Of a DNA stretch of 64,000 nucleotides, positions 1,356-12,775 are shown in pieces. Position 1 is the first letter of the stretch; the number at the start of each line of letters is the position of its first letter. Both the position numbers and the translations under genes were made by a program. This DNA comes from Trueperaceae bacterium (GTDB lineage Bacteria > Deinococcota > Deinococci > Deinococcales > Trueperaceae), in NCBI GenBank assembly GCA_965213925.1, contig OZ243927.1, forward strand, positions 2,912,001 through 2,976,000, read 5' to 3'. Under the pieces are notes generated by a model, which was given only the letters and a program-made list of their open reading frames with translations, made no database searches and was not told the DNA's origin.

Positions 1356-1656
1356 CGCGGCAGGTGGTATGAGCTGCTACGGGCATGATGCTGTCTATTC
1401 CTGAGGGGTGAGCACTTCTGTAGGAGTTGCGCGCGTTCGCTGCACAAACCTGTCTTGCCGCAACATGGAGCGTCAGGTCACCTATCTAGCTCAGGCGCAG
1501 TGGGCCCGACAGGTAACGCGACCGACACGTCGCCAGCCCTGGAGCGCCCGAGAATTGGCTTGCGAGTTGATATCTCGCGTACGGATAACGGTCGAGCTAA
1601 GCCGCAACGGGCTTAGAGCACAACCTTCGTACGCAGCAACGTAGCCACCATCTACT

Positions 1657-2158
1657 TGGAGTTGGTAAGGGATGAACGGACAGAAAAGTTCAACTTACGC
1701 CGCTAACCTTTCCAAGCTCTGGGTTCCGAAATCGTTAGGACACTGATAGCCGAGACTGCTGTGCAGTCGCCAACTGTTGTAGTACATGTTGATAAATTCG
1801 CTTACGGCTGATCGAACCTTTTCTCTCGTCTCGAAATTGATCTGATAGACGAGTTCTTTAAGGTGGCGAAGAAGCTCTCGGTCCAGTCGAGCTGGTGGCT
1901 TTAGCTTCCGCAGGAACGAACGGTGTAAGCGTTGTCCAGGCACGCGCCGGTGCCAGTAAAACTGGGGCGCATCCCCTGAGCGGCTAGCTCGCGCCCATAG
2001 GCGTAGGAGGTGTACTGGCTACCCTTATCGCTGTGATGAATAAGACCCTTTTGGCAGTAACGCTGTTTCGTCGCCATGCGCAGCGCCTGAACGACGAGGT
2101 CGGTCTTCATGTTGTCCGCCACTGCGCAGCCGACGACCCGCTTGGAGAGAAGTCTTTA
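1657..2158 (-). mobile_element. IS3-family remnant (3' part of the rve integrase domain, frameshifted or deleted, plus putative right end)
   Basis: ORFs 1901-2122 (IHHSDKGSQYTS, GACLDNA) and 1695-1943 (YYNSWRLHSSLGY) are IS3 OrfB motifs in different frames; the minus strand ends ...CTGTCCGTTCATCCCTTACCAACTCCA, like an IS3 IR. Confidence 0.8.
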
Positions 2159-2207
2159 ACAGCTAGCGGGAGCGGTCCACGCGACGCGTAAGCCTTGCGA
2201 ATGCGTA

Positions 2208-2385
2208 GGGGTCTCGTTTCGCATTCTCAGCAAGAGGAGAAGGCAGATGCAGAGATTCTTTCACTTCGCTGGCGCTACGTTCAGAATGACAACAGCGGCG
2301 GCATGTCACCCTGAGCCTTTAGGCGTGAGGGTCTCGTCTTGCACTCTCGGCTAGTCAAGCACGGAATGACGAGATTCTTTCACTT
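2208..2385 (-). repeat. Intergenic MITE/REP-like palindromic repeat family A (one and a half copies)
   Basis: GAGATTCTTTCAC...GTTCAGAATGACA and TGTCACCCTGAG...GGGTCTCG match the reverse complement of 14477-14606 and 46762-46947. Confidence 0.75.
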
Positions 2386-2595
2386 CACTCATTGCTCATT
2401 CCTCATTGCTCATTGCTTTTTTTGCGAACTTCCTTACACCTCGTTTTACATGTGAAATTTGCAAGTTCTTTGTAAGCGTTCAGCGGCTAAACTCTTTTTT
2501 AGCAAGGGAGTAACACTCCCGCGCTACGAACTCTCACCGGAACAGCCGCTTTCATTCATATTCTTTATCGGATGTTCCCAGAAAAGGAGCGCACC

Positions 2596-2967
2596 ATGCG
2601 CAACAACAAGAACAAAGGCTTCACCCTCATCGAACTCCTCATCGTCATCGCCATCATCGGCATCTTAGCAGCGGTTCTCATCCCGAACTTGCTCTCGGCT
2701 CGCAGCCGCGCATACGACACGACTGCTCAGACTTGTGCTAAAGGTCTTGCAACGGCGGCTGAAATCTTTCAGATTGACAACAATACCTATGTTGGTTTTA
2801 CTGATACTTACGCGAAGGCGAACGGTGCCAACGCATGTAACGACGCTAACATTACTGTTGCTGTCGGTACACCCACCGTTGGCAATTACAGCATGACCTC
2901 TACACACGCCAACGGTAGCAAAACCTTTACAGTTACGCCTAGCGGTATCACTTCTGCTGCTAAGTAA
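2596..2967 (+). CDS. pilA: Type IV pilin (major-pilin-like)
   Basis: Class III signal KG|FTLIELLIVIAIIGILAAVLIP; AAGGAG RBS before ATG 2596; Cys pair. Confidence 0.85.
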   Translation: MRNNKNKGFTLIELLIVIAIIGILAAVLIPNLLSARSRAYDTTAQTCAKGLATAAEIFQIDNNTYVGFTDTYAKANGANACNDANITVAVGTPTVGNYSMTSTHANGSKTFTVTPSGITSAAK

Positions 2968-2987
2968 GCAGGCAAGATAATGCCCAA

Positions 2988-3023
2988 GAGAGCTGAAGCT
3001 AACTTCAGCTCTCTTTCATTTAT
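2988..3023 (+). terminator. Putative intrinsic terminator between the pilin genes
   Basis: Hairpin AGAGCTGAAG-CTAA-CTTCAGCTCT followed by a T-rich tract. Confidence 0.6.
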
Positions 3024-3072
3024 TCCTATTCCGAATGTCATGAAATGATTGAGAGAAAGGAGGGGGAAAAAG

Positions 3073-3453
3073 ATGCTTGAAAAGCGTACAGAAGGCTTCA
3101 CACTTATCGAGTTGCTTATAGTTATTGCAATTATCGGTATTCTTGCTGCCGTGATGATTCCTAATCTTTTAGCCGCTAGACAGAAAGCTGATGAAAGCGT
3201 CATTCAAGGTTATATACGTTTTGTCGTTTTAGGCGTAGAATCTAAGCGGGATTACGCAAGTTCAACGCTTCCCGACGCCTCTTTGTCTTGTATGCAATTA
3301 GCAGGAAAAGACCCCGAACCTGGTAGCGTTAAGCGTTGTAAGTACGAACCTAATGCGGCAGCCGAAACTTACACCATCACGGCTGAAAGTCCTTCGGGGA
3401 AAGTTTTTCAGTATCAGAGCGATGGCGATATTGTTTCAGTCGCAAGCTACTAA
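3073..3453 (+). CDS. Second type IV pilin-like protein
   Basis: EG|FTLIELLIVIAIIGILAAVMIP prepilin motif; AT-rich coding sequence. Confidence 0.85.
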   Translation: MLEKRTEGFTLIELLIVIAIIGILAAVMIPNLLAARQKADESVIQGYIRFVVLGVESKRDYASSTLPDASLSCMQLAGKDPEPGSVKRCKYEPNAAAETYTITAESPSGKVFQYQSDGDIVSVASY

Positions 3454-3459
3454 GTACAT

Positions 3460-3541
3460 CATCACCCTGTCTTCATCCAGGCGGCTTCTTTAGCCGTCTT
3501 TTTCCTTTGCCCCACTTCACGTGCTGTATCATAGAACCATG
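3460..3541 (+). repeat. Array repeat R1 (partial: hairpin and T tract, then a TATCAT -10 and ATG)
   Basis: CATCACCCTGT...CCAGGCGGCTTCTTTAGCCGTCTTTTTC, core at 3477. Confidence 0.9.
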
Positions 3542-3742
3542 AGCATCTCTAAGCAAATGATAGAACCTGAATATATCGTTGATCATGAAGGGCGTAAGAC
3601 AAAAGTTGTCTTGCCGATTGAGGCGTATGAAGAACTGTTAGAAGACCTTCACGACTTAGCTGTCGCTTTTGAGAGGCGTGATGAACCTCTTCTTGCTTGG
3701 GAAGATGTGAGGCGTGACTTAGAGGAAGATGGCGCGTTATAA
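3539..3742 (+). CDS. Antitoxin (RelB/StbD-like), cassette 1
   Basis: Small acidic protein (VVLPIEAYEELLEDLHDL...WEDVRRDL) overlapping a RelE gene; leaderless ATG 6 nt after TATCAT. Confidence 0.75.
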   Translation: MSISKQMIEPEYIVDHEGRKTKVVLPIEAYEELLEDLHDLAVAFERRDEPLLAWEDVRRDLEEDGAL

Positions 3743-3995
3743 GCTGCTTGCTCGTTCGTCCTTTCGGAAAGACCTCAAAAGGTTATCCAAAGACGTTGCC
3801 GAGCGGGTGTCGGCTAAAGTTGAGAGTCTAGCCGACGACCCTTTCCCAGCGGATAGCAAAAAGTTGCAGGGTCATAGAGGGCTTTACCGTGTGCGAGTGG
3901 GCGCGTATCGGGTTGTATATGAGGTAGATCAAGAGGTCAAAATTATCGCCCTAACGTATGCGCGTCACCGGAAAGATGTCTACCGAAACCTCTAA
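3729..3995 (+). CDS. RelE/ParE-family toxin, cassette 1
   Basis: 88 aa, basic; KKLQG..LYRVRVGAYRVVYEVD...HRKDVYR motif. Confidence 0.9.
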   Translation: MARYKLLARSSFRKDLKRLSKDVAERVSAKVESLADDPFPADSKKLQGHRGLYRVRVGAYRVVYEVDQEVKIIALTYARHRKDVYRNL

Positions 3996-4001
3996 ACTTA
4001 G

Positions 4002-4086
4002 CCTGTGAATCCAGGCGGCTTCTTTAGCCGTCTTTTTCTTTGGCTTTTAGCCGCTACGGGACACACTACCTTGAGCGTATGAGCAC
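4002..4086 (+). repeat. Array repeat R2
   Basis: CCAGGCGGCTTCTTTAGCCGTCTTTTTCTTTGGCTTTTAGCCGCTAC...GCGTATGAGCAC, core at 4011. Confidence 0.95.
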
Positions 4087-4117
4087 CTGTTTGACTTTGT
4101 AGGTGTATCATTGAACC

Positions 4118-4339
4118 ATGAACCTTCATGACGTTGAAAGCGTCGCTCTACGGCTAAACCCCGAAGACCGCGCCGCGCTCGCGCACCGTTTGCTCGTCAG
4201 CTTGGACGACTTGAGCCCGGAAGAGCATGAGCGGGTATGGCTGGAAGCGGCAGAGGAGCGTGTGCGGGAGCTTAGGGAGGGCACAGTACAAGGTGTCCCT
4301 ACAAGTGACGTTCTGAGCGATGTCCGAAGAAAACTTTAG
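4118..4339 (+). CDS. Addiction-module antitoxin component, cassette 2
   Basis: AL.L..EDRA.LA..LL.SLD...W..AE.R..EL..G pattern of putative addiction module components. Confidence 0.8.
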   Translation: MNLHDVESVALRLNPEDRAALAHRLLVSLDDLSPEEHERVWLEAAEERVRELREGTVQGVPTSDVLSDVRRKL

Positions 4340-4655
4340 TGCTTTTGGCAGCCTTTTTCACCCTGCGGCAAGGCCCTGACTACTTGACGCCATAGAGTAC
4401 TACCGGAACAGGTCGCCCCATTTGGCTTCGACATTTTACGAAGATATTGAGCGCTGTCTTGAAGAGCTACTTGAGTTTCCAGAACTGGCTCCCGTTAAGC
4501 ACCCCGCCGGGGTTCGGAGTCAGCCGTTACGCCGTTTTCCGTACAGTGTGCTTTATACGGTAGACCCCGATGTTTTATATATCGTGGCTGTTGCTCATCA
4601 GAAACGCCGCCCCAACTACTGGTTACGCCGCTTAGGGCTCGAGGCGGACTCGTAG
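4320..4655 (+). pseudogene. ParE/RelE-family toxin with an in-frame stop, cassette 2
   Basis: ATG 4320 frame reads ...FHPAARP*LLDAIEYY...LRRFPYSVLY...IVAVAHQKRRPNYW; TGA at 4377-4379. Confidence 0.7.
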
Positions 4656-4665
4656 CATTGACATC

Positions 4666-4784
4666 CATCATCCTATTTTCATCCAGGCGGCTTCTTTAGC
4701 CGTTCTTTTTCTTTAGCCTTCAGCCGCCACGAGGCGTGCTATCCTAAGCGTATGAGCGCGTTTAAGCGAGCGGTAGAGCCTGAA
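4666..4784 (+). repeat. Array repeat R3
   Basis: Core CCAGGCGGCTTCTTTAGCCG at 4683; GCGTGCTATCCTAAGCGTATGAGCGCG...GTAGAGCCTGAA. Confidence 0.95.
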
Positions 4785-4795
4785 ATACGCTTGTT

Positions 4796-5179
4796 TCAGT
4801 CCAACGATAACTTTTTCCTTGCAAATGCTCTTAGTTTGGTAGCCTCGTTTTGAGCGCGTCTTGCGTCTTGTACGCTCACTTCGGGTAAATCGCCTGGATA
4901 GCGGCGAACGACGCCGAAAAGGGCGAGGAAACTAGCGGCTGTTACGGGGTCGCTGTCTGCTCGTAGCTCTGGTTCTAGTAGACTTAGTAGTCGCAACAGG
5001 TCGTGGGTACGGGGCGGCTCGATACTTTGTTCTAGTAGCGCCGCTTTGAGGTACTTTTCGGCGGCCTGGTGAAAGTCCCAAGTAGCGTTTCGGGGGTAGC
5101 GCGTAAGACCTAACTGGGCGTATTCATAATCTTCTTCAGCGTAGGCGGCCCAGCGTAGCGCCTCGCGCTTAGGCGGCAT
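4796..5179 (-). CDS. HEPN-domain protein (toxin), cassette 3
   Basis: AEEDY..A, FHQAAEKYLKA, PPRTHDLLRL and RYPG HEPN motifs. Confidence 0.85.
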   Translation of the reverse strand: MPPKREALRWAAYAEEDYEYAQLGLTRYPRNATWDFHQAAEKYLKAALLEQSIEPPRTHDLLRLLSLLEPELRADSDPVTAASFLALFGVVRRYPGDLPEVSVQDARRAQNEATKLRAFARKKLSLD

Positions 5180-5486
5180 AGAGCAAAATACCCTCTTGCG
5201 CTGCGCGTCTTGCTAGCGGTGAGCTTCTTTGGAGCCAGTGGCTTTGGCGCATCGGAACGAGGTCTATAGCGCTTTGCCTAGGCCATAGCGAGCGCTCTGC
5301 ACAGGCAGCTAGAGAGGAGAGGTCGGCGTCGTCGGGAACGATGTACAGCAAATCTACATCGCTACTCTCGTTAGCTTCACCTCGAGCCAGAGAACCGAAC
5401 AGGATAACGGCGTATGCGCCCGTTGCCTGTCCTAAACGTTCGGCAGCGCGGCTAAGCTCTGCGGGAAGGCTCTCTTTAGCTAGCAT
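5169..5486 (-). CDS. Minimal nucleotidyltransferase (MNT antitoxin), cassette 3
   Basis: LFGSLARGE...SDVDL motif; overlaps the HEPN gene. Confidence 0.9.
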   Translation of the reverse strand: MLAKESLPAELSRAAERLGQATGAYAVILFGSLARGEANESSDVDLLYIVPDDADLSSLAACAERSLWPRQSAIDLVPMRQSHWLQRSSPLARRAAQEGILLYAA

Positions 5487-5723
5487 CTAAGTCCATATCT
5501 CCTGCAAATCGTCTTCGCTGTAGAGGGCGTCTTCATCTTCCATATCTCTCATGGCATTGGACAGCGAAAAAGAGGTCCAGTCTGGTCCATCTAGTTTACC
5601 TTCTGCTTTTGGTACGGTCTTTTGAAGTAAGAACTCCGCAAAGTGCTGCTCTTCGCGCTGCTGCTGTGCGTCTAGCTGGGGCAGTAGCTCAACTACGGCT
5701 TCGATGCTCGTTTTATCTTCCAT
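5487..5723 (-). CDS. Small acidic DUF2281-like putative antitoxin (orphan), cassette 3
   Basis: L..L....Q.E...FAEFL..K N-terminus and acidic tail; leaderless start 6 nt after TAAACT. Confidence 0.55.
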   Translation of the reverse strand: MEDKTSIEAVVELLPQLDAQQQREEQHFAEFLLQKTVPKAEGKLDGPDWTSFSLSNAMRDMEDEDALYSEDDLQEIWT

Positions 5724-5735
5724 AGTTACAGTTTA

Positions 5736-5846
5736 CATCACCCTGTTACTCCAGGCGGCTTCTTTAGCCGCCTTTTTCTTTGGCTTTTAGCCGCTACTAG
5801 CCGTAACTGTTCTAAGCGTATGAGCACGTTTGAGTGAGTGGTAGAC
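5736..5846 (+). repeat. Array repeat R4
   Basis: CATCACCCTGTTACTCCAGGCGGCTTCTTTAGCCGCCTTTTTCTTTGGCTTTTAGCCGCTAC...CTAAGCGTATGAGCACG, core at 5751. Confidence 0.95.
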
Positions 5847-5850
5847 TCCT

Positions 5851-6204
5851 CTATTCCACCTCTTCAAGCATCGCCTCAACTTCGAGGCGCAACTCAGGAA
5901 GTTCTTTTTCCACTACGTCCCAGATAATCTCTAGGTCTAAACCGAAATACTGATGTGCAATGACGTTACGCAGCCCTACGATTTGACGCCAGGGAATTTC
6001 TGCGTGAGCGTCGCGGAGGTCTGTAGGGAGTTTCCCGGCAGCTTCACCGATGATGAGCAAATTAAAGGTTACAGCGTCGGCTCTTAGCGGGTCTGCGAGT
6101 AGCGTGTCGAGAGATTGATCTTTGGTGTAGGCTTCAATCTTGAGAATCGCGCCGAGAACATCGTCTAAGTAGAGCTTGACTTCACGCGACACGCCTTGCC
6201 TCAC
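5851..6204 (-). CDS. DUF86/HepT-like HEPN RNase toxin, cassette 4
   Basis: IIGEAA, EIPWRQIVGLRNVIAHQYFGLD (RX4HXY motif). Confidence 0.9.
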   Translation of the reverse strand: MRQGVSREVKLYLDDVLGAILKIEAYTKDQSLDTLLADPLRADAVTFNLLIIGEAAGKLPTDLRDAHAEIPWRQIVGLRNVIAHQYFGLDLEIIWDVVEKELPELRLEVEAMLEEVE

Positions 6205-6472
6205 TGATTACCTTATCGCGTAGGAGCGGTTTTAGACCGTCTTTGGTGATGAGGTCAACGGGACGGCCGAAAAGGTCTTCTAAGAATAGCTTGAGCCCCA
6301 TGTAGTTGCGAAAGGTCTTAGGGTGCAGGTCAACGAGAAAGTCTAGGTCGCTCGTTTCTTCTGCTTCATTCCTAGCTGTTGAGCCAAAAACGGATAGCTG
6401 CACTACACCGAAGTCTTGTAAACGGGTCCGGTATTGCTCTAGTGTTGTGCTCACGCTCTGAAGTTGGTTCAT
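6182..6472 (-). CDS. Minimal nucleotidyltransferase (MntA-like antitoxin), cassette 4
   Basis: VFGSTARNE...SDLDFLVD...LEDLFGRPVDL. Confidence 0.9.
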   Translation of the reverse strand: MNQLQSVSTTLEQYRTRLQDFGVVQLSVFGSTARNEAEETSDLDFLVDLHPKTFRNYMGLKLFLEDLFGRPVDLITKDGLKPLLRDKVISEARRVA

Positions 6473-6488
6473 CCTGCTTCGCAGTGTA

Positions 6489-6607
6489 CCTCATCCTGTT
6501 ACACCAGGCGGCTTCTTCAGCCGTCTTTTTCTTTGGCTTTCAGCCGCTACTAAGCGTGCTATCCTAAGCATATGAGCACGTTTGAGCGAATCACAGTAGA
6601 CCCTGAA
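6489..6607 (+). repeat. Array repeat R5
   Basis: Core at 6504; GCGTGCTATCCTAAGCATATGAGCACG supplies the start codon at 6572. Confidence 0.95.
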
Positions 6608-6787
6608 GTGATGTTGGGTCAGGCTGTTATTAGAGGAACACGCTTGCCCGTCTATGTCATTGTTGAAGCTGTAGCTGAGGGAAATACCATTGATGAACTC
6701 GTGCAGGCCTATCCCTTTTTAGGCGCTGAAGATGTCAGGCAGGCGCTGCTATTTGCGGCGCATCTGAGCCACGGCAATATGGCGTGA
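6572..6787 (+). CDS. DUF433-family antitoxin, cassette 5
   Basis: RITVDPEVMLGQAVIRGTRLPV...YPFL..EDVRQAL. Confidence 0.9.
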   Translation: MSTFERITVDPEVMLGQAVIRGTRLPVYVIVEAVAEGNTIDELVQAYPFLGAEDVRQALLFAAHLSHGNMA

Positions 6788-7131
6788 CCTTTCTGGTTGA
6801 TGAGAATTTACCTTTTGAGTTAGTTCAACTAGCGCAAGGTAGAGGTTTAGACGCGCTTTGGGTTCGTAATGTCATGCCGGGTGCTAAAGACAGTCTCATT
6901 TTGAAGCGTTTGAGCGAACAGCAAGAGGTATTGGTAACGAGAGATATCGGCTTCGCGAATCTAGTCTTTGGGCAGATGGTCGTGGGCGTACCTTTAGTGG
7001 GCGCGGTACTTATTCGTGAGGAGAGGTTAGAGGTCATTCGTCAGGTTTGGCTAACCTTCTTGCTAAATATGCCTACTTTTCGGGGAATTGCGGTGCTTAC
7101 GGCTAAAGGAGTGCGCGTTCGTGAGCCATGA
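6784..7131 (+). CDS. DUF5615/Mut7-like PIN toxin, cassette 5
   Basis: FLVDENLP...G.KD..I......EVLVTRD.GF; overlaps the DUF433 gene (GTGA). Confidence 0.85.
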   Translation: MTFLVDENLPFELVQLAQGRGLDALWVRNVMPGAKDSLILKRLSEQQEVLVTRDIGFANLVFGQMVVGVPLVGAVLIREERLEVIRQVWLTFLLNMPTFRGIAVLTAKGVRVREP

Positions 7132-7155
7132 TAATTCTATTGCTAAAAGGGGTCA

Positions 7156-7380
7156 ATGATGGCGTGTCCTGGAACGTGTGAACCCAAAATGATCCTCTTT
7201 CGCGGCAAGCAGAAGGGCGAAACGGTTATGATTGATGACGTGCCCGCTTTGGTTTGTCAGGTGTGCGGCGACATGGTTTTAGAACCTGATGTGGTGCGGC
7301 ACATCGAAGCACTGTTGCACTCTGAGGAAGAGCCAAGCAAGCAGTATCCTGTTTTTACGTTTGCGCAAAAAGCTGCTTAG
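7156..7380 (+). CDS. YgiT/MqsA-type zinc-finger protein (orphan antitoxin-like), cassette 5
   Basis: CPGTC...IDDVPALVCQVCGD motif. Confidence 0.75.
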   Translation: MMACPGTCEPKMILFRGKQKGETVMIDDVPALVCQVCGDMVLEPDVVRHIEALLHSEEEPSKQYPVFTFAQKAA

Positions 7381-7385
7381 CGCCC

Positions 7386-7506
7386 CATCGTCCTGTGAAT
7401 TCCAGGCGGCTTCTTTAGCCGTCTTTTTCTTTGGCTTTTAGCCGCCACTAAGCGTGCTATCCTAAGCACATGAGCACGCCCAAGCGAATCGCGGTAGAGC
7501 CGGAAT
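7386..7506 (+). repeat. Array repeat R6
   Basis: Core at 7402; GCGTGCTATCCTAAGCACATGAGCACG supplies the start codon at 7470. Confidence 0.95.
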
Positions 7507-7703
7507 ATATCACGGATCATGAGGGGCACAGAACGAAAGTCGTTTTGCCTATCGAAGCGTATGAAGCCTTGCTTAGAGCGGCGCAGCAGCCTAACAAAAC
7601 GCCGCAGAAGCGCACGTTCAGTTCGTTAGGCGCAGGCGAGGATGCCACTTTGCAGGGGGCGGAGACTCGAGACCTCATCGAGCGGGCTTGGCAGGAGCGT
7701 TGA
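7470..7703 (+). CDS. Antitoxin (apparently chimeric), cassette 6
   Basis: N-terminal ~35 aa close to the 3539 antitoxin; unrelated VapB-like C-terminus; overlaps the PIN gene. Confidence 0.75.
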   Translation: MSTPKRIAVEPEYITDHEGHRTKVVLPIEAYEALLRAAQQPNKTPQKRTFSSLGAGEDATLQGAETRDLIERAWQER

Positions 7704-8101
7704 GCCTGGTTTTAGATACGAGCGCTGTCCTCGCTTTCCTTAACCGTGCCGACGTAGACCATACACGTGTGCGAGAGGTACTTTTAGAGGAGCGCGAGTT
7801 GCTGGTTGTTCCTGTCGGCATTATGGCTGAGATTGGTTACTTGGTAGAGACGAGGCTGGGGCAGCGTGTTTTAAGCCTCTTTTTGCAAGATATTGCTGAA
7901 GGTCATTTCATGTTGGACTGTGGGCTCGAGGATATGTCGCGGGTACAAGCCCTCGTCGAGCGTTACGCGGACATGTCTTTAGGCTACGCCGACGCGGTTG
8001 TGATCGCTTGCACTGAACGCTCGGGGCTGAGAATTATCAGCTTAGATAGACGGCACCTTAATGTTGTCAACCGGGAGATTCAGTTCGAGCTATTGCCTTG
8101 A
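7688..8101 (+). CDS. VapC-like PIN-domain toxin, cassette 6
   Basis: VLDTSAVLAF...D..H...E...LGYADA......ISLDRRH; the true start may be TTG at 7700. Confidence 0.9.
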   Translation: MAGALSLVLDTSAVLAFLNRADVDHTRVREVLLEERELLVVPVGIMAEIGYLVETRLGQRVLSLFLQDIAEGHFMLDCGLEDMSRVQALVERYADMSLGYADAVVIACTERSGLRIISLDRRHLNVVNREIQFELLP

Positions 8102-8107
8102 GATTCG

Positions 8108-8222
8108 CTTATCTTCATCCGGGCGGCTTCTTTAGCCGCCTTTTTCCTCTGCTTTCAGCCGCTACCAGGCGTGCTATCCTAAGCGTCTGAGCACGCCCAA
8201 GCGAAGTGCGGTAGAGCCTGAA
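8108..8222 (+). repeat. Array repeat R7
   Basis: CCGGGCGGCTTCTTTAGCCGCCTTTTTC at 8119...GCGTGCTATCCTAAGCGTCTGAGCACG. Confidence 0.9.
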
Positions 8223-8320
8223 TATATTACGGACCATAAAGGTCGCAAGACCAGGGTCGTTTTGCCTATCGAGGTGTTCGAGGAACTCCTCGAAGACCTG
8301 CTTGACCTCTCAGTTACAGC
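8187..8320 (+). pseudogene. Degenerate copy of the cassette 1/6 antitoxin, with no toxin
   Basis: CTG replaces ATG at 8187; reads STPKRSAVEPEYITDHKGRKTRVVLPIEVFEELLEDLLDL and then diverges. Confidence 0.75.
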
Positions 8321-8514
8321 AGGAGATTTTGGAGCGAGCACAAGAGGTCAAGGCGCGGTTGGAAAGAGGAGGGCTACAAGCTATTTCGGCTCAGAGCGTT
8401 TGGAACGGCTCGAGCAAAAACTCGCCGCGCTCTATAACTCGAGCCGTATTCCTCAATACGTTTTTTCTTCCTCCCTGACGCTAAGGTACAAAAGACAAAC
8501 TAAAAGGAGGAAGT

Positions 8515-9495
8515 ATGTTTAACACGAAGACAGACGCGAAACGGTCCTTGTCCCGCCGGAAGCTCCTCAAAGGATTAGGCGCAGGTGCCATCGGCGTAAG
8601 CCTCGGTCATTTGAGCGTCGTGCGCGCGCAAGATACGGGCGGCTCGCAGACGGGTGGCGCGGCTGGAACCTCTAGCCCCTCTCTCCCCCTCGCTCTGCAA
8701 CGCTTCGACCTCGGCGACACCCGAGTTACTGTGTTCCAGGAGGCTGTTCTGGAGTTGCAGCCGTCGATGCTGGGTGCAGGCGGCGGCGCGTCCGAAGGTG
8801 CGGTCAGCGACCTCTTGAGTCAGTACAACTTGCCCACCGACGTGGTCCGCGCGACAGCCAACGTGATGCTTCTGGATAGGGGCGGCGAGCGCATCCTCAT
8901 CGATACGGGCACGGGGCAGAACCTCGTCCCGACCTTGGAGGCTATCGGCGTGTCGCCTAGTGACATTAACTATGTAATTATCTCGCACTATCACGGCGAC
9001 CACATCTCGGGCATGTCAAGTGACGGCGCGTTGACTTTCCCGAACGCTATGCACTATATCTCGCAGGCGGAGTGGGATTTTTTGCAGGGCGCACCCGCAG
9101 ATAACGACGGCGCACAAACCGCGTTGGACAAACTACAACCCGCGGTAGACGCGGACCAGCTCTCCCGCTTCGGCGGTGGCGACGAGGTCGTGAGCGGCGT
9201 GCAGGCGGTAGAGGCGTTCGGTCACACGCCGGGGCACATGAATTTCCTCATTAGCTCAGGCGATGAAAGCGTTTTACACATCGCCGACACCGCTGTCCAC
9301 GCGCTCGTGTCGCCCCTACACCCCGACTGGGCGTTCGCCTTCGACGGCGATTCCGAGAGAGCCGCTGAGACACGCCGTGAGATTTTGAACCGAGCCTCGA
9401 GCGAAGGCACGCGCATCTTTGCCTACCACTTCGCCTTTCCCGGTCTGGGCTACATTGCGCAAGAGGGCGAGGAATTCAGGTTCACGCCCGCGTAA
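8515..9495 (+). CDS. Tat-exported metallo-beta-lactamase-fold hydrolase (MPH/OPHC2/AHL-lactonase-like)
   Basis: SRRKLLK Tat motif; SHYHGDH, GHTPGH and YHFAFPG motifs. Confidence 0.85.
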   Translation: MFNTKTDAKRSLSRRKLLKGLGAGAIGVSLGHLSVVRAQDTGGSQTGGAAGTSSPSLPLALQRFDLGDTRVTVFQEAVLELQPSMLGAGGGASEGAVSDLLSQYNLPTDVVRATANVMLLDRGGERILIDTGTGQNLVPTLEAIGVSPSDINYVIISHYHGDHISGMSSDGALTFPNAMHYISQAEWDFLQGAPADNDGAQTALDKLQPAVDADQLSRFGGGDEVVSGVQAVEAFGHTPGHMNFLISSGDESVLHIADTAVHALVSPLHPDWAFAFDGDSERAAETRREILNRASSEGTRIFAYHFAFPGLGYIAQEGEEFRFTPA

Positions 9496-9631
9496 GGGCG
9501 GTTATCAGTAGTCAGAATTCAGTAGTCAGCTCAAAAGACGCTAATGAATTCTGACTACTATCTACTGACTTCTATTTTCTCAGTGAGCGTTTCACCAGAA
9601 CAATGGCGCTGCCCTGCTACGATAGCCTCTC

Positions 9632-10741
9632 ATGGACGCGCTACGGGCTTTTCTCTCCCTTTCGTTTACCCCTGGTTTGGGTCCACGCAAAATCAAGGTG
9701 CTCACGGAACACTTTGGCGGCGCAGTGGCAGTTTGGGAGGCGGAACCAGAGGCGCTGCGAGAGGTCGAGGGCGTTGGTCCTAAGCTGATTCAGTCACTTT
9801 TGAAGGCGAGAGACTCAGCAAAAATCAGCGAAGAGGTCGAGAAAGAGTTGGAGCGCGCGGAACGCTCGAACGTTGCGCTGCTGCACCTCGAGCACCCCGC
9901 CTACCCCGAACCTTTACGAAACGTCTACGACCCGCCCCCTCTCATCTATGTGCGCGGCACCTTGCCGAAGGTGCTCGCGCAGAATAAAGCCGTCGGTATT
10001 GTCGGCACGAGGAACGCGAGTCAATACGCGCTTCATCTTAGTTTGAACGTTAGCAAAGAGTTGGCCCTGGCAGGCGTCGCCGTCGTCTCCGGCTTAGCGC
10101 TCGGCGTGGACAGCGCCGCGCATAAGGGCGCAGTGCAGACTGAAAACGGGCAGACCGTCGCAGTGCTGGGTTCCGGCGTGGACGTCATCTATCCGCGTCA
10201 AAATCAGCGTTTAGCCGAAGAGATTTTAGAGGGTCACGGCGCAGTGGTGAGCGAATACCGAATCGGCAGCGGTCCGCGTGCCACGAACTTTCCGGCGAGA
10301 AATAGAATTATCAATGGACTTTCAAAAGGTGTTTTGGTTGTAGAGGGCGGGCTTAAATCGGGCGCACTCATTACAGCAGAGTTTGCGCTCGAGGAAGGGC
10401 GCTCGGTTTTCGCCATACCCGGCAGAGTTGGCGACAGTAAAGCCGAGGGAACTTTGGCGCTCCTCAAACAAGGCGCAGTGATGGTGCAGAGCGCCGCCGA
10501 CCTCTTACGAGAGTTCGGCTGGCGCGAAGCGGGTGCGAAAAACGCTGTTTCGCTGACCTCTTTAGAGGAGCCGGGGCGCAGCCTCGTTCAAACGATTCAA
10601 GAGCGCGGTTCTCCCCTACTCGATGATCTAATAAGCGCAACGGGTAAAACGACCGCCGACCTCTTGCCGACGCTGATGCTTTTAGAACTCCAAGGCGTCG
10701 TGAAGCAGCTTCCTGGCGGCAGGTACATCAGCTTGATTTGA
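9632..10741 (+). CDS. dprA: DNA-processing protein DprA
   Basis: DPPPLIYVRG, IVGTR, VSGLALGVD, FPARNRIINGLS, SGALITA; C-terminal winged helix. Confidence 0.95.
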   Translation: MDALRAFLSLSFTPGLGPRKIKVLTEHFGGAVAVWEAEPEALREVEGVGPKLIQSLLKARDSAKISEEVEKELERAERSNVALLHLEHPAYPEPLRNVYDPPPLIYVRGTLPKVLAQNKAVGIVGTRNASQYALHLSLNVSKELALAGVAVVSGLALGVDSAAHKGAVQTENGQTVAVLGSGVDVIYPRQNQRLAEEILEGHGAVVSEYRIGSGPRATNFPARNRIINGLSKGVLVVEGGLKSGALITAEFALEEGRSVFAIPGRVGDSKAEGTLALLKQGAVMVQSAADLLREFGWREAGAKNAVSLTSLEEPGRSLVQTIQERGSPLLDDLISATGKTTADLLPTLMLLELQGVVKQLPGGRYISLI

Positions 10742-10744
10742 GGA

Positions 10745-10889
10745 TACGCTACACTAAAGTCACTACAGAAACGCTCTTCGCGACTTGATCTATACTTGCT
10801 AGACCTTTTAATTGAAAGAGACGATGCAGCGTGCGAAGAGGTTGAGAGGCGAACGTTGTAGGGGTGGGTTTCAAACCCACCCCACCCGT
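10745..10889 (-). repeat. GTAG-type REP palindrome with tail (family B)
   Basis: GTAGGGGTGGGTTTCAAACCCACCC at 10858; flank resembles 54523-54655 in reverse. Confidence 0.6.
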
Positions 10890-10942
10890 TTTTCATATGT
10901 CGCGCACTCTATCTTGGAAGCACATGACAACACGGTCTAGTC

Positions 10943-12775
10943 TCAAAGAGTGTGAAGGACGAGACTCGAGTATTGAGGTAAGCGTAGCTCGAGCGTTCCT
11001 TTTTCAGTTTCAACCTCTTGCTTATCGAGTAGAGAGGTCAACGTCGCGCTATCCAAACCCAACTTCCACACAGGCAACGCCACCTCGACCTCTTCGCCTC
11101 GGTTCACCGCCGCGATGACGACATCCTCGCCCAAGACCCTCGCAAACGCATACACGTCACCTCTTGCGTAAAGCGTCACCAACGCGCCCTGCTGCAAGAC
11201 TCTATGCTCTTTCCGAAAGGCAATAAGGGTTTGACAGTGACCTCTTAGGTCTTCGTCCCACTGACCTTCATCCCAAGGGAAGGTGCGGCGGCAGTCTGGA
11301 TCACGACCACCCTCGACGCCAACCTCGTCACCATAGTAAACACACGGCACACCGATATAAGTAAAGAGTAGCGTCACCGCCGCTTTCATGAGACCCTTGT
11401 CGCCCTTCACTTGCGTTAAAAAGCGCGGCGTGTCGTGCGAGCCTAAGAGGTTGAACTGCGAGAGCTGAATCTCGAAGGGGAGGCGAGCGCGGGAGCGGGT
11501 CATGACCTTGTCTAATGTCTGCGCGTCGACTTTGACCGGATGACCCTTGTGGTCGGTTTCGGCGAAGAACGCCCAGAGCGGGCGGGCGAAGCCGTCGTAG
11601 TTCATCGCGGCGTCCTCTTGGTCGCCTTGCAGCCACTTCGTCGCTTCGTAGAAGTGTTCACCTAACACGTATGCTTCGGAGTTCTCTTCGCGCAACGTCT
11701 GGCGGAAATGGCGCACGTATTCGGCATTTTTCGCCGCGCCGGAGCCCTCGCCCAACATGTGCAGCACGTCGAAGCGCCAGCCGTCGATTTCGTAAGGCGG
11801 TTTGAGCCAGTAGCGCAACACGGCGTCGTCGGCTTCGTAGATGCGCTCGCGCAGTTCAGGGGCGCTGTAGTCGAGCGTGGGGAGCGTTTTAACGCCGATC
11901 CAACCGTGATACGACTCGGGGTCGTCTTCGTCGTAAAAGGTGTAGAAGTTTCGCGTCTGCGCCTCTTTCGAGCCGTACGCGCCCGCCTCTTCGTATTCGT
12001 CGTAACGGTCGAACCAGGGGTGACGTTCGGAGGTGTGGTTGATGACAGCGTCTAGGATGACGCGCATGTCGCGCTCTTTCAGCTCGGAGCAGAGTTCGGC
12101 AAACTCTTCGTTCGTACCGAAGTGCGGGTCCACGTTGAGATAGTCCACGGTGTCGTACTTGTGTGACGAAGGTGAAACGAAGATAGGGTTCAAGTAGAGC
12201 GCCGTGACGCCCAAATCCTCCAAGTAAGGCAACTTCTGACGAATACCCGCTAGGTCGCCACCATAGAACTCACGCGGTCCCTGTGAACGTTCGGGCAGTT
12301 CGCCCCATTCCTTCGCGACGACGGGCTCGCCTTCGTAGAGGTATTCGCCGTCCGTGACGTTGTTGCTGGGGTCGCCGTCAGAAAAGCGCTCGGGGAAAAT
12401 CTGGTAGAAGACCGACGACCAGACCCAGCGGGCGGGCTCATACGCCGGATTAAGACGAAAGTGCACGTCGCGCTCGGGGAAGTACGGTGAGACGCCATCT
12501 TGCGCGAGCCAGAATTGCCGTCCGTCCACGATGAACTTAAAGGCGTAGAGCGTGAGCTGTTCCGCTGGGTTGAGACGCAGTTCGCCCTCGTAAAAGGTCC
12601 ATGCGCCCTCCTTTTTCTGCAAGTTAAGCGGGCTCAAAAATTCTTCATTGTCGGGCTCGCTGCGTACCCAAGCGGACTCAATGGTGAGGTTGCGCGGAAC
12701 TTGGAGGGTGACGCGCCACTTCTCATTTTGCTCCGTGAGACCTTCGGCGGGGGAGTGAAAGGCGAAAATGTCCAT
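10943..12775 (-). CDS. malZ: Maltodextrin glucosidase / neopullulanase-like GH13 enzyme
   Basis: FYQIFPERF, SHKYDT, DAVINH, DGWRFDV, LGSHDTPR; start taken at MDIFAFH. Confidence 0.85.
   Translation of the reverse strand: MDIFAFHSPAEGLTEQNEKWRVTLQVPRNLTIESAWVRSEPDNEEFLSPLNLQKKEGAWTFYEGELRLNPAEQLTLYAFKFIVDGRQFWLAQDGVSPYFPERDVHFRLNPAYEPARWVWSSVFYQIFPERFSDGDPSNNVTDGEYLYEGEPVVAKEWGELPERSQGPREFYGGDLAGIRQKLPYLEDLGVTALYLNPIFVSPSSHKYDTVDYLNVDPHFGTNEEFAELCSELKERDMRVILDAVINHTSERHPWFDRYDEYEEAGAYGSKEAQTRNFYTFYDEDDPESYHGWIGVKTLPTLDYSAPELRERIYEADDAVLRYWLKPPYEIDGWRFDVLHMLGEGSGAAKNAEYVRHFRQTLREENSEAYVLGEHFYEATKWLQGDQEDAAMNYDGFARPLWAFFAETDHKGHPVKVDAQTLDKVMTRSRARLPFEIQLSQFNLLGSHDTPRFLTQVKGDKGLMKAAVTLLFTYIGVPCVYYGDEVGVEGGRDPDCRRTFPWDEGQWDEDLRGHCQTLIAFRKEHRVLQQGALVTLYARGDVYAFARVLGEDVVIAAVNRGEEVEVALPVWKLGLDSATLTSLLDKQEVETEKGTLELRLPQYSSLVLHTL

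Follow-up and report, generated by a model that had tools for sequence, protein, structure and literature searches.

The locus analysed here lies in a 64,000-nt stretch of contig OZ243927.1 of a Trueperaceae bacterium; the window means this whole stretch, and the coordinates of the locus refer to it. The source genome (G000) comprises 4.75 Mb with a G+C content of 58.4%. Behind a pair of type IV pilin genes, the window contains a row of small toxin-antitoxin (TA) cassettes, with seven same-strand copies of a repeat, hereafter called the linker, at the junctions. Our subject is what the linker consists of and how the order of the cassettes may have arisen. The row was compared with those of the other two species of the same genus (G001 and G002), of two congeners from another genus of the family (G005 and G055) and of a third genus (G050). 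Gene content was annotated by Pfam, NCBIfam and PADLOC. The two pilin genes, the six cassettes and the remnant at the right end of the row are as follows.

2572..2967, + strand: type IV pilin 1, the left anchor (Pfam N_methyl); its orthologues precede the rows in G001 and G002
3049..3453, + strand: type IV pilin 2, PilA4 family (Pfam PilA4 and N_methyl); linker R1 follows directly after its stop codon
3539..3995, + strand: cassette 1, RelB-like (3539-3742) and RelE/ParE (3729-3995); Pfam, NCBIfam RelE_StbE
4118..4655, + strand: cassette 2, Unstab_antitox (4118-4339) and a ParE-like frame (4344-4655); Pfam
4796..5723, - strand: cassette 3, inverted, DUF2281-like (5487-5723; weak, E 0.006), MNT (5169-5486) and HEPN (4796-5179); Pfam
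5851..6472, - strand: cassette 4, inverted, a type VII TA pair of MntA-like nucleotidyltransferase (6182-6472) and HepT RNase (5851-6204); Pfam
6572..7380, + strand: cassette 5, DUF433 (6572-6787), DUF5615 PIN-like (6784-7131) and YgiT-type zinc finger (7156-7380); Pfam, NCBIfam YgiT_finger
7470..8101, + strand: cassette 6, RelB-like (7470-7703) and PIN/VapC (7688-8101); Pfam
8187..8330, + strand: terminal remnant that closes the row on the right, an N-terminal RelB-like fragment; Pfam

An earlier note on this DNA, made from the letters alone, had proposed that each interval holds a different TA module and that two cassettes are inverted. The domain matches bear out the content, as adjacent small genes match type II or type VII TA families by sequence (Pfam and NCBIfam), and they place the cargo of cassettes 3 and 4 on the minus strand. 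The picture of one complete module per interval needs correction, since several cassettes are eroded or composite. The ParE-like frame of cassette 2 carries an in-frame TGA (4377-4379) with no clear start codon before it, so that its toxin looks inactivated while the antitoxin is intact. The DUF2281 and YgiT genes look like orphan antitoxins, lacking the toxins that stand beside homologous genes in relatives; a homologue of the YgiT gene of cassette 5 follows a DUF4258 toxin in both G001 and G002. For cassette 4, the NCBIfam models of MntA and HepT scored below their cut-offs, and PADLOC assigned the MNT gene to PDC-S09. Several of the proteins have close counterparts in the related rows: the RelE of cassette 1 is 92% identical to the toxin of cassette 4 in G001, and its RelB 83% identical to the RelB of G001 over residues 6-68; the MNT and HEPN proteins of cassette 3 are 70% and 76% identical to a pair in the row of G005, and the antitoxin of cassette 6 is 71% identical to the first-position antitoxin of G002.

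The linkers were aligned, and a hidden Markov model (searched with nhmmer) and a covariance model were built from them. Their boundaries, taken from the nhmmer envelopes and the alignments, are given below.

3461..3572, + strand: linker R1, position-1 type, with the pilin 3' tail; hairpin 3479-3499; -10 element TATCAT; the ATG at 3539 starts relB
3996..4114, + strand: linker R2; hairpin 4013-4033
4667..4785, + strand: linker R3; hairpin 4686-4704, then a 12-codon RelB-like stub
5736..5848, + strand: linker R4; hairpin 5753-5773; stub open reading frame (ORF) of only 5 codons
6489..6608, + strand: linker R5; hairpin 6506-6526; the ATG at 6572 is the start of the DUF433 gene
7387..7506, + strand: linker R6; hairpin 7404-7424; extended -10 element TGcTATCCT at 7455-7463; ATG at 7470
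8104..8223, + strand: linker R7; hairpin 8121-8141; start codon altered to CTG

A 20-nt core of the repeat occurs in seven copies, all on the plus strand, at 3477, 4011, 4683, 5751, 6504, 7402 and 8119 (five exact, two with one mismatch), and the spacing from core to core ranges from 534 to 1068 bp. The pattern search thus returned every position, the common orientation and the periods that the earlier note had reported. The chance expectation for the core is 0.03, and none of 100 shuffles gave seven copies. The full repeat unit is longer than this core and measures about 112 to 120 nt according to the envelopes and alignments. All seven matches of the whole-genome pattern search (4.75 Mb) are inside the array, and nhmmer with the --max option recovered the same seven copies, the next match having an E value of 0.3. 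In 128 genomes of the family, the covariance model found seven copies in G000, six in G001, two weak ones in G002 and one marginal match elsewhere. The pattern scans of outside genomes covered one genome per species, with the source and near genomes excluded; the gapped linker pattern had no match there, and the hairpin-core pattern matched 10 single sites in unrelated taxa, none of them with a row around it. In metagenome contigs there was no match to the promoter pattern and one match to the core pattern, inside an unrelated coding sequence. The plasmid and phage collections yielded no linker match by distant blastn. In Rfam, at E values up to 1, the linkers were without a match, and three weak matches elsewhere all stayed below the gathering score. 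The sensitivity of the search matters here: blastn with a single linker copy in 40 relatives missed the variant hairpin of G002, which was found by reading the pilin locus.

From left to right, a linker consists of a 3' tail, a hairpin with a T-run, an extended -10 element, 6 nt, and an ATG with antitoxin codons. The shared 3' tail of about 20 nt (CATCAYCCTGT...) begins directly after the stop codon of the left cassette. It is followed by the hairpin GGCGGCT-TCTTT-AGCCGYC and then TTTTTCTTT, while 3 to 13 codons after the ATG resemble the N-terminus of a RelB-like antitoxin (MSTFKRIAVEPE). On the left, the linker begins at a fairly constant place, about 22 nt ahead of the hairpin; on the right, its edge shifts from copy to copy, between 8 and about 40 nt beyond the ATG. 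A consensus scan made a terminator-like call in all seven hairpins (a stem of 7-8 pairs and a T-run). Behind forward cassettes, the hairpin lies 6-30 nt past the stop codon. Among the 14 distinct hairpins of G000, G001 and G002, 99.1% of the stem cells are paired, and all changes are one-sided (G-C, G-U, A-U); the G-U pairs kept in the stem suit an RNA hairpin.

The element TATCCT is preceded by TGc and stands 6 nt before the linker ATG. This is the arrangement of a leaderless promoter, with the -10 element 5-7 nt before the start codon and no Shine-Dalgarno leader. Across the genome, TANNNT at a spacer of 6 was found at 295 of 4336 long-ORF starts (6.8%), compared with about 1.1% at other offsets. 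In Deinococcus deserti, 60% of the mRNAs are leaderless (PMC4007540), and the spacing from -10 element to ATG in the linker appears to be the leaderless-mRNA signature known from that species (PMC4007540). Together with the PilA4-type pilin, this signature points to the Deinococcota. The linker ATG is the start codon of the first gene in three cassettes (3539, 6572 and 7470); in the remaining ones it opens a short stub, and the cargo has its own start. A 7-bp inverted repeat, GCGTGCT-N14-AGCACGC, spans the -10 element and the ATG (7453-7479 in R6). It is perfect in R6, R7 and the last copy of G001 and partial in the other copies, and we speculate that the RelB-like antitoxins may use it as an operator. 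The linker is therefore described below as a predicted terminator and a predicted promoter, as far as its motifs indicate these activities.

In both G001 and G002, a row is found directly behind the orthologous pilin pair, and the right flank is different in each. The row of G001 has six linkers and contains an inverted 87-aa gene, HicBA, an inverted DUF2281/PIN, RelBE, DUF4258/YgiT and a stub; dprA of this genome is 3.2 Mb away from the row. The row of G002 is decayed, with three variant hairpins (GGCGGC-TCATY-GCCGCC and a T-run), and its genes are a vapB with a deleted vapC, DUF4258/YgiT, an inverted DUF2281/PemK and a DUF433 stub. In the window, homology with the flank of G002 begins at 8442 (blastn). 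The three rows have part of their cassettes in common, in another order. The RelBE cassette is at position 1 in G000 and at position 4 in G001, with 80.8% DNA identity, and the core flank genes (the metallo-beta-lactamase-fold hydrolase gene beside dprA, dprA and the next gene) are 76-81% identical between these two genomes. In G000 the vapB cassette comes after YgiT, in G002 ahead of DUF4258/YgiT, a reversal that loss alone cannot produce.

The linkers themselves were compared in the same way. The identity of internal linkers is 85% within G000, 85% within G001 and 84% between the two, and copies that differ as much within a genome as between species are old. The first linkers of G000 and G001 are orthologous at 77% and distinct from the internal copies, R1 being 59-67% identical to the other copies of G000. 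For the linkers that flank the common RelBE cassette, the identity is 75% between R2 of G000 and R5 of G001 and 55% between R1 of G000 and R4 of G001.

Some further observations belong to these two congeners. In G001 (L021), the row ends at a minus-strand tRNA-Val and tRNA-Cys (8664-8884), after which an S24-peptidase phage-type repressor and a Cro-like helix-turn-helix gene are found (9249-10263); the right flank of G001 may be a prophage or island, and the right flank differs in all three congeners. In G002 (L043, minus strand, about 8600-8530 and 7880-7790), the decayed linkers contain a CTCGAG-rich insert that is like the modules of the G005 row and has the orientation opposite to the row.

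Rows of TA genes are also found beyond the genus. G005 has eight TA pairs between two pilin genes (L046, G005:C1:250000-266000, 4600-11050), and its HEPN/MNT, MNT/HepT and HicBA homologues have 65-85% protein identity, compared with 63% for DprA. This genome has its own repeats, with 11 of the 16 genome matches to one motif inside the row. In G055 (L051, reverse strand 1500-6300), five cassettes are common with G005 at 83-89% DNA identity; their order is permuted with the orientation unchanged, two HicBA cassettes being swapped and the RelE cassette standing at the opposite end, and the cassettes are separated by a linker of its own of about 95 nt. The TA row of G050 (L045, G050:C1:676000-695000, 7100-11600; two RelB-like genes, PIN, RelE, PemK and others) is not beside pilins as far as it was read, and it contains eight copies of its own repeat, GGGGCTCGAGCC...TTTGCTTAGCGTTGAGGGCTCGAGCGGCC. 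Two MNT/HEPN pairs are located behind the pilin pair of G050. Overall, TA modules adjoin major pilin genes in seven of the nine genomes examined, which were not randomly chosen; none were found there in G013 and G022. As for the form of the foreign linkers, those of G005 and G055 consist of modules around CTCGAGCCCC, small hairpins with variable stems (GGCGT/ACGCC, CCAAA/TTTGG, CACC/GGTG) and a GCCTGA-N7-TCAGGC hairpin. The row of G050 adjoins a 345-aa ORF that resembles a transposase by eye only.

The breakpoints between common and differing sequence fall inside genes as well as in the linkers. When five RelB-like genes were aligned, the first ~100 nt were found to be common to antitoxins that precede RelE and VapC. 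This first part groups by row position (cassette 1 of G000 with the first gene of G002, and cassette 4 of G001 with the terminal stub of G000), while the remainder groups by toxin type. Likewise, DUF2281 heads together with the adjoining linker precede MNT/HEPN in G000, PIN in G001 and PemK in G002. Variable edges and mosaic coding breakpoints of this kind indicate exchange anywhere in the common sequence, as homologous recombination predicts and a fixed-point recombinase does not.

Other junctions were found in sequencing runs, for which k-mer contigs from four public runs were aligned to the locus. In a biofilm run, one contig leads from the RelE end through a linker to the DUF433 cassette (3998 to 6504, with cassettes 2-4 skipped; shorter side 114 nt), and another from cassette 3 through a linker to cassette 6 with vapB (5746 to 7405; shorter side 58 nt). 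Loose contig ends of this run match the HicB junction of G001, and in a marine run a HEPN/MNT cassette was found behind a linker closer to R5. The informative contigs are about 90-96% identical to the locus and may derive from several strains; according to the run contigs, the likely source sample also contains a G001-like organism.

From these results, we interpret the locus as a hypervariable TA hot spot that is reshuffled by homologous recombination at repeated regulatory linkers and not as a new site-specific system, and we give this reading a probability of about 0.55. The terminator of a linker would end the left cassette, and the extended -10 promoter would start a leaderless transcript at or next to the ATG. 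As the linkers run in the same direction and are about 85% alike, they would act as portable homology. RecA-type recombination between them could then delete, duplicate, permute or replace cassettes with no dedicated recombinase needed, either within a chromosome, between sister chromosomes or with DNA from natural transformation. Possible routes are unequal exchange, excision of a circle that re-enters at another copy, and replacement by transformed DNA. Since the RelB-like and DUF2281 antitoxins are conserved in their N-terminal part, the homology would reach into the genes, so that toxins become swappable behind one antitoxin head.

Several points weigh against this interpretation. The hairpin shows no double compensatory change, and its counts are no better than those of shuffled controls (14 copies); the linker yielded no promoter call in the sigma-70 scan, for which a -35 box is obligatory. 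Linker identity is no higher within a genome than between genomes, which gives no hint of recent gene conversion. No recombination event was seen directly, and the metagenome junctions are supporting evidence and not proof, because k-mer contigs may join falsely across a repeat of about 100 nt. Differential loss from an ancestral row of larger size could account for much of what separates the species. How inverted cargo first came to stand between same-strand linkers is left unexplained by homologous recombination, and a recombinase encoded elsewhere in the genome may act in trans.

The differential loss just mentioned is the basis of the first alternative, in which the row is static: the linkers would be promoters and terminators copied by tandem duplication of a relBE operon, and the species would differ by what each has lost from a large ancestral row. 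The age of the linker copies agrees with it. So does the common RelBE cassette, which has diverged like the core genes (80.8% compared with 76-81%), and the first and last linkers are orthologous between G000 and G001. Erosion is common in the row, as shown by the broken ParE, the orphan antitoxins and the remnants. However, loss cannot reverse vapB and YgiT between G000 and G002 or swap the HicBA pair between G005 and G055; the linkers flanking the common RelBE cassette are not the closest pairs (75% and 55%), the antitoxin genes are mosaic, and other neighbours turn up in metagenome contigs of about 90-96% identity. On balance we consider a static row unlikely.

A second alternative treats the locus as an integron-like capture platform, with the linker or a short core in it as the site of a dedicated recombinase encoded elsewhere. 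The layout is indeed that of a sedentary integron, with same-strand linkers, cargo in either direction, TA-rich content and a first copy fixed behind an anchor gene, and in two genera the cassettes have changed places but kept their orientation. The linker also has a fairly constant left edge. The genome contains 10 tyrosine recombinase genes (PF00589) of unassigned targets. The linker is homogeneous within a genus and differs from one genus to another, which recalls the species-specific attC sites of chromosomal integrons (PMC12614218).

The sites and the enzyme were examined directly. No integron integrase was found in the genome, where the best score to TIGR02249 is 61.5 bits against a cut-off of 265. 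The consensus of the attC boxes is RYYYAAC for R'' and GTTRRRY for R'. A search for such box pairs on both strands found them in none of the seven copies, and DNA folds of copy R6, again for both strands, gave only short local hairpins and no imperfect palindrome spanning the site. The spacer between small CCTG/CAGG arms in the linker varies from 6 to 8 nt. No recombinase gene is near the row of G000: the nearest of the tyrosine recombinase genes is about 27 kb from it and outside the window, each of the two serine recombinase genes of the genome is more than 295 kb distant, and a Y1 transposase gene was not found. None was noticed either among the ORFs beside the rows of G001, G002 and G005, whose flanks are only partly annotated. 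The repeat was therefore rejected as an attC site. With the right edge variable and the breakpoints within coding sequence, and with a terminator and promoter function that would account for the conserved parts of the linker, we regard a dedicated capture enzyme as quite improbable.

These results also bear on what the earlier note had claimed about the nature of the repeat. It had described a repeat without attC ends and a window without intI, which the box search, the folds and the TIGR02249 score confirm. It had named three findings that would speak against its proposal, namely a repeat scattered over the genome, identical cassette order in relatives, and a standard attC with an intI; none of them was made, as the copies are confined to the row, the rows of G001 and G002 have a different order, and both attC ends and integrase are lacking. 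Its inference of a modular locus that recombines at the repeat stands as far as the locus-specific repeat and the differing cassette orders are concerned, but not as a dedicated site-specific machine, since homologous recombination fits better. The idea of a new cassette system was not upheld: the repeat reads as a terminator and a leaderless promoter followed by the start of an antitoxin gene, with a variable right edge and mosaic breakpoints in coding sequence.

A dispersed element of the repetitive extragenic palindromic (REP), bacterial interspersed mosaic element (BIME) or miniature inverted-repeat transposable element (MITE) type was also rejected, and the notion that such an element, or an assembly artefact, came to lie between TA genes by chance can be dismissed in spite of the hairpin and the ten single hairpin-core matches in unrelated taxa, because the genome has no copies outside the row and no Y1 (RAYT-type) transposase gene was found in it, the same structure is present in the independently assembled congener G001, the ten outside matches have no row, and the metagenome match is inside a coding sequence.

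Reshuffling by homologous recombination, our preferred reading, may be part of a wider scheme, which we put forward tentatively and at rather less than even odds. The linker would combine a terminator, a leaderless promoter, perhaps controlled by the antitoxin, and recombination homology. The locus would then be an integrase-free counterpart of the integron, with excision, permutation and capture of TA cassettes by RecA-type recombination, possibly from DNA that enters through the adjacent competence pilus, and the other genera would have the same design with their own linkers.

In the neighbourhood of the row, the G+C content of the row and the pilin genes is low, at 44-57% (about 1500 to 8500), compared with 58.4% for the genome. 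Just left of the pilins, two adjacent minus-strand ORFs at 1695-2122 match parts of the IS3-type integrase core (rve and rve_2); these matches mark a broken IS3-type transposase, and no other trace of mobility genes is seen nearby. A weak Rfam match to the HrrF small RNA (34.6 bits, against a gathering score of 77) covers 2912-3016, over a strong terminator hairpin at 2986-3015 after pilin 1, and is most likely a chance match. On the right, a 19-nt inverted repeat at 9507-9559, 95% complementary with 15 nt between the arms, is located between the hydrolase gene (8515-9495) and dprA and may be a terminator.

When compared with known systems, the locus works like an integron but lacks the features by which integrons are recognised. 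It resembles sedentary chromosomal integrons and clusters of attC sites lacking integron integrases (CALINs) in its small cassettes, same-strand repeats, cargo in either direction, richness in TA genes, first site fixed by an anchor and lineage-homogeneous repeat. It differs from them in that G000 has no IntI and the linker has neither R''/R' boxes nor an imperfect palindrome spanning the site. Integron cassettes are mostly promoterless and depend on a common Pc, while each linker here has a predicted promoter and terminator; moreover, the linker repeat extends into coding sequence and its edge is variable. Another system for comparison is the pdif (XerC/XerD) modules of Acinetobacter plasmids, which are small, often carry TA genes and have no recombinase gene of their own, and which are bounded by 28-bp Xer sites in alternating orientation. 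The cassettes described here are likewise small, often TA, repeat-bounded and without their own recombinase gene, but their repeats are direct and about 120 nt long, and no 11-6-11 Xer-type core was seen by eye.

Two other systems come closer in mechanism or in content. In the minimal mobile elements of Neisseria, whole genes form cassettes between conserved flanks, and after transformation these are exchanged by homologous recombination (PMC3082526). As in these elements, differing cassettes stand between conserved sequences across genomes, there are no mobility genes, and homologous recombination is proposed here; the present lineage is expected to be naturally competent, and pilin and dprA genes lie alongside, although competence is an expectation only. 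Unlike the two housekeeping-gene flanks of a Neisseria element, the flanks here are tandem non-coding linkers of about 120 nt, so that one locus has many exchangeable slots and internal rearrangement is possible. In Photorhabdus, small TA-rich spots occur on the chromosome as clusters alone or with transposases or integrases (PMC13617665), and the clustering of TA genes in small spots is, according to that paper, already known. Unrelated type II TA systems packed tightly, frequent pseudogenisation and content that varies among relatives are common to these spots and to our row (PMC13617665). The accessible part of the same paper (PMC13617665) mentions no common linker for the Photorhabdus spots, whereas every junction here carries a predicted terminator-promoter unit. 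In a limited literature search, no report of TA modules in a row with one shared terminator-promoter linker came up.

How TA modules reach small chromosomal spots and how they move is mostly unclear. The locus offers a testable model, in which common regulatory DNA doubles as the substrate of recombination and the cell shuffles selfish or defensive modules without a dedicated enzyme. Even if this model is not true, the locus clearly illustrates how expression signals can be standardised across a TA island. If it is true, there would be a second route to a modular gene row that is independent of integrons, and the joining of antitoxin DNA-binding heads to unrelated toxins would be explained. 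In that case, with pilin genes as its anchor, the row might also be coupled to natural transformation.

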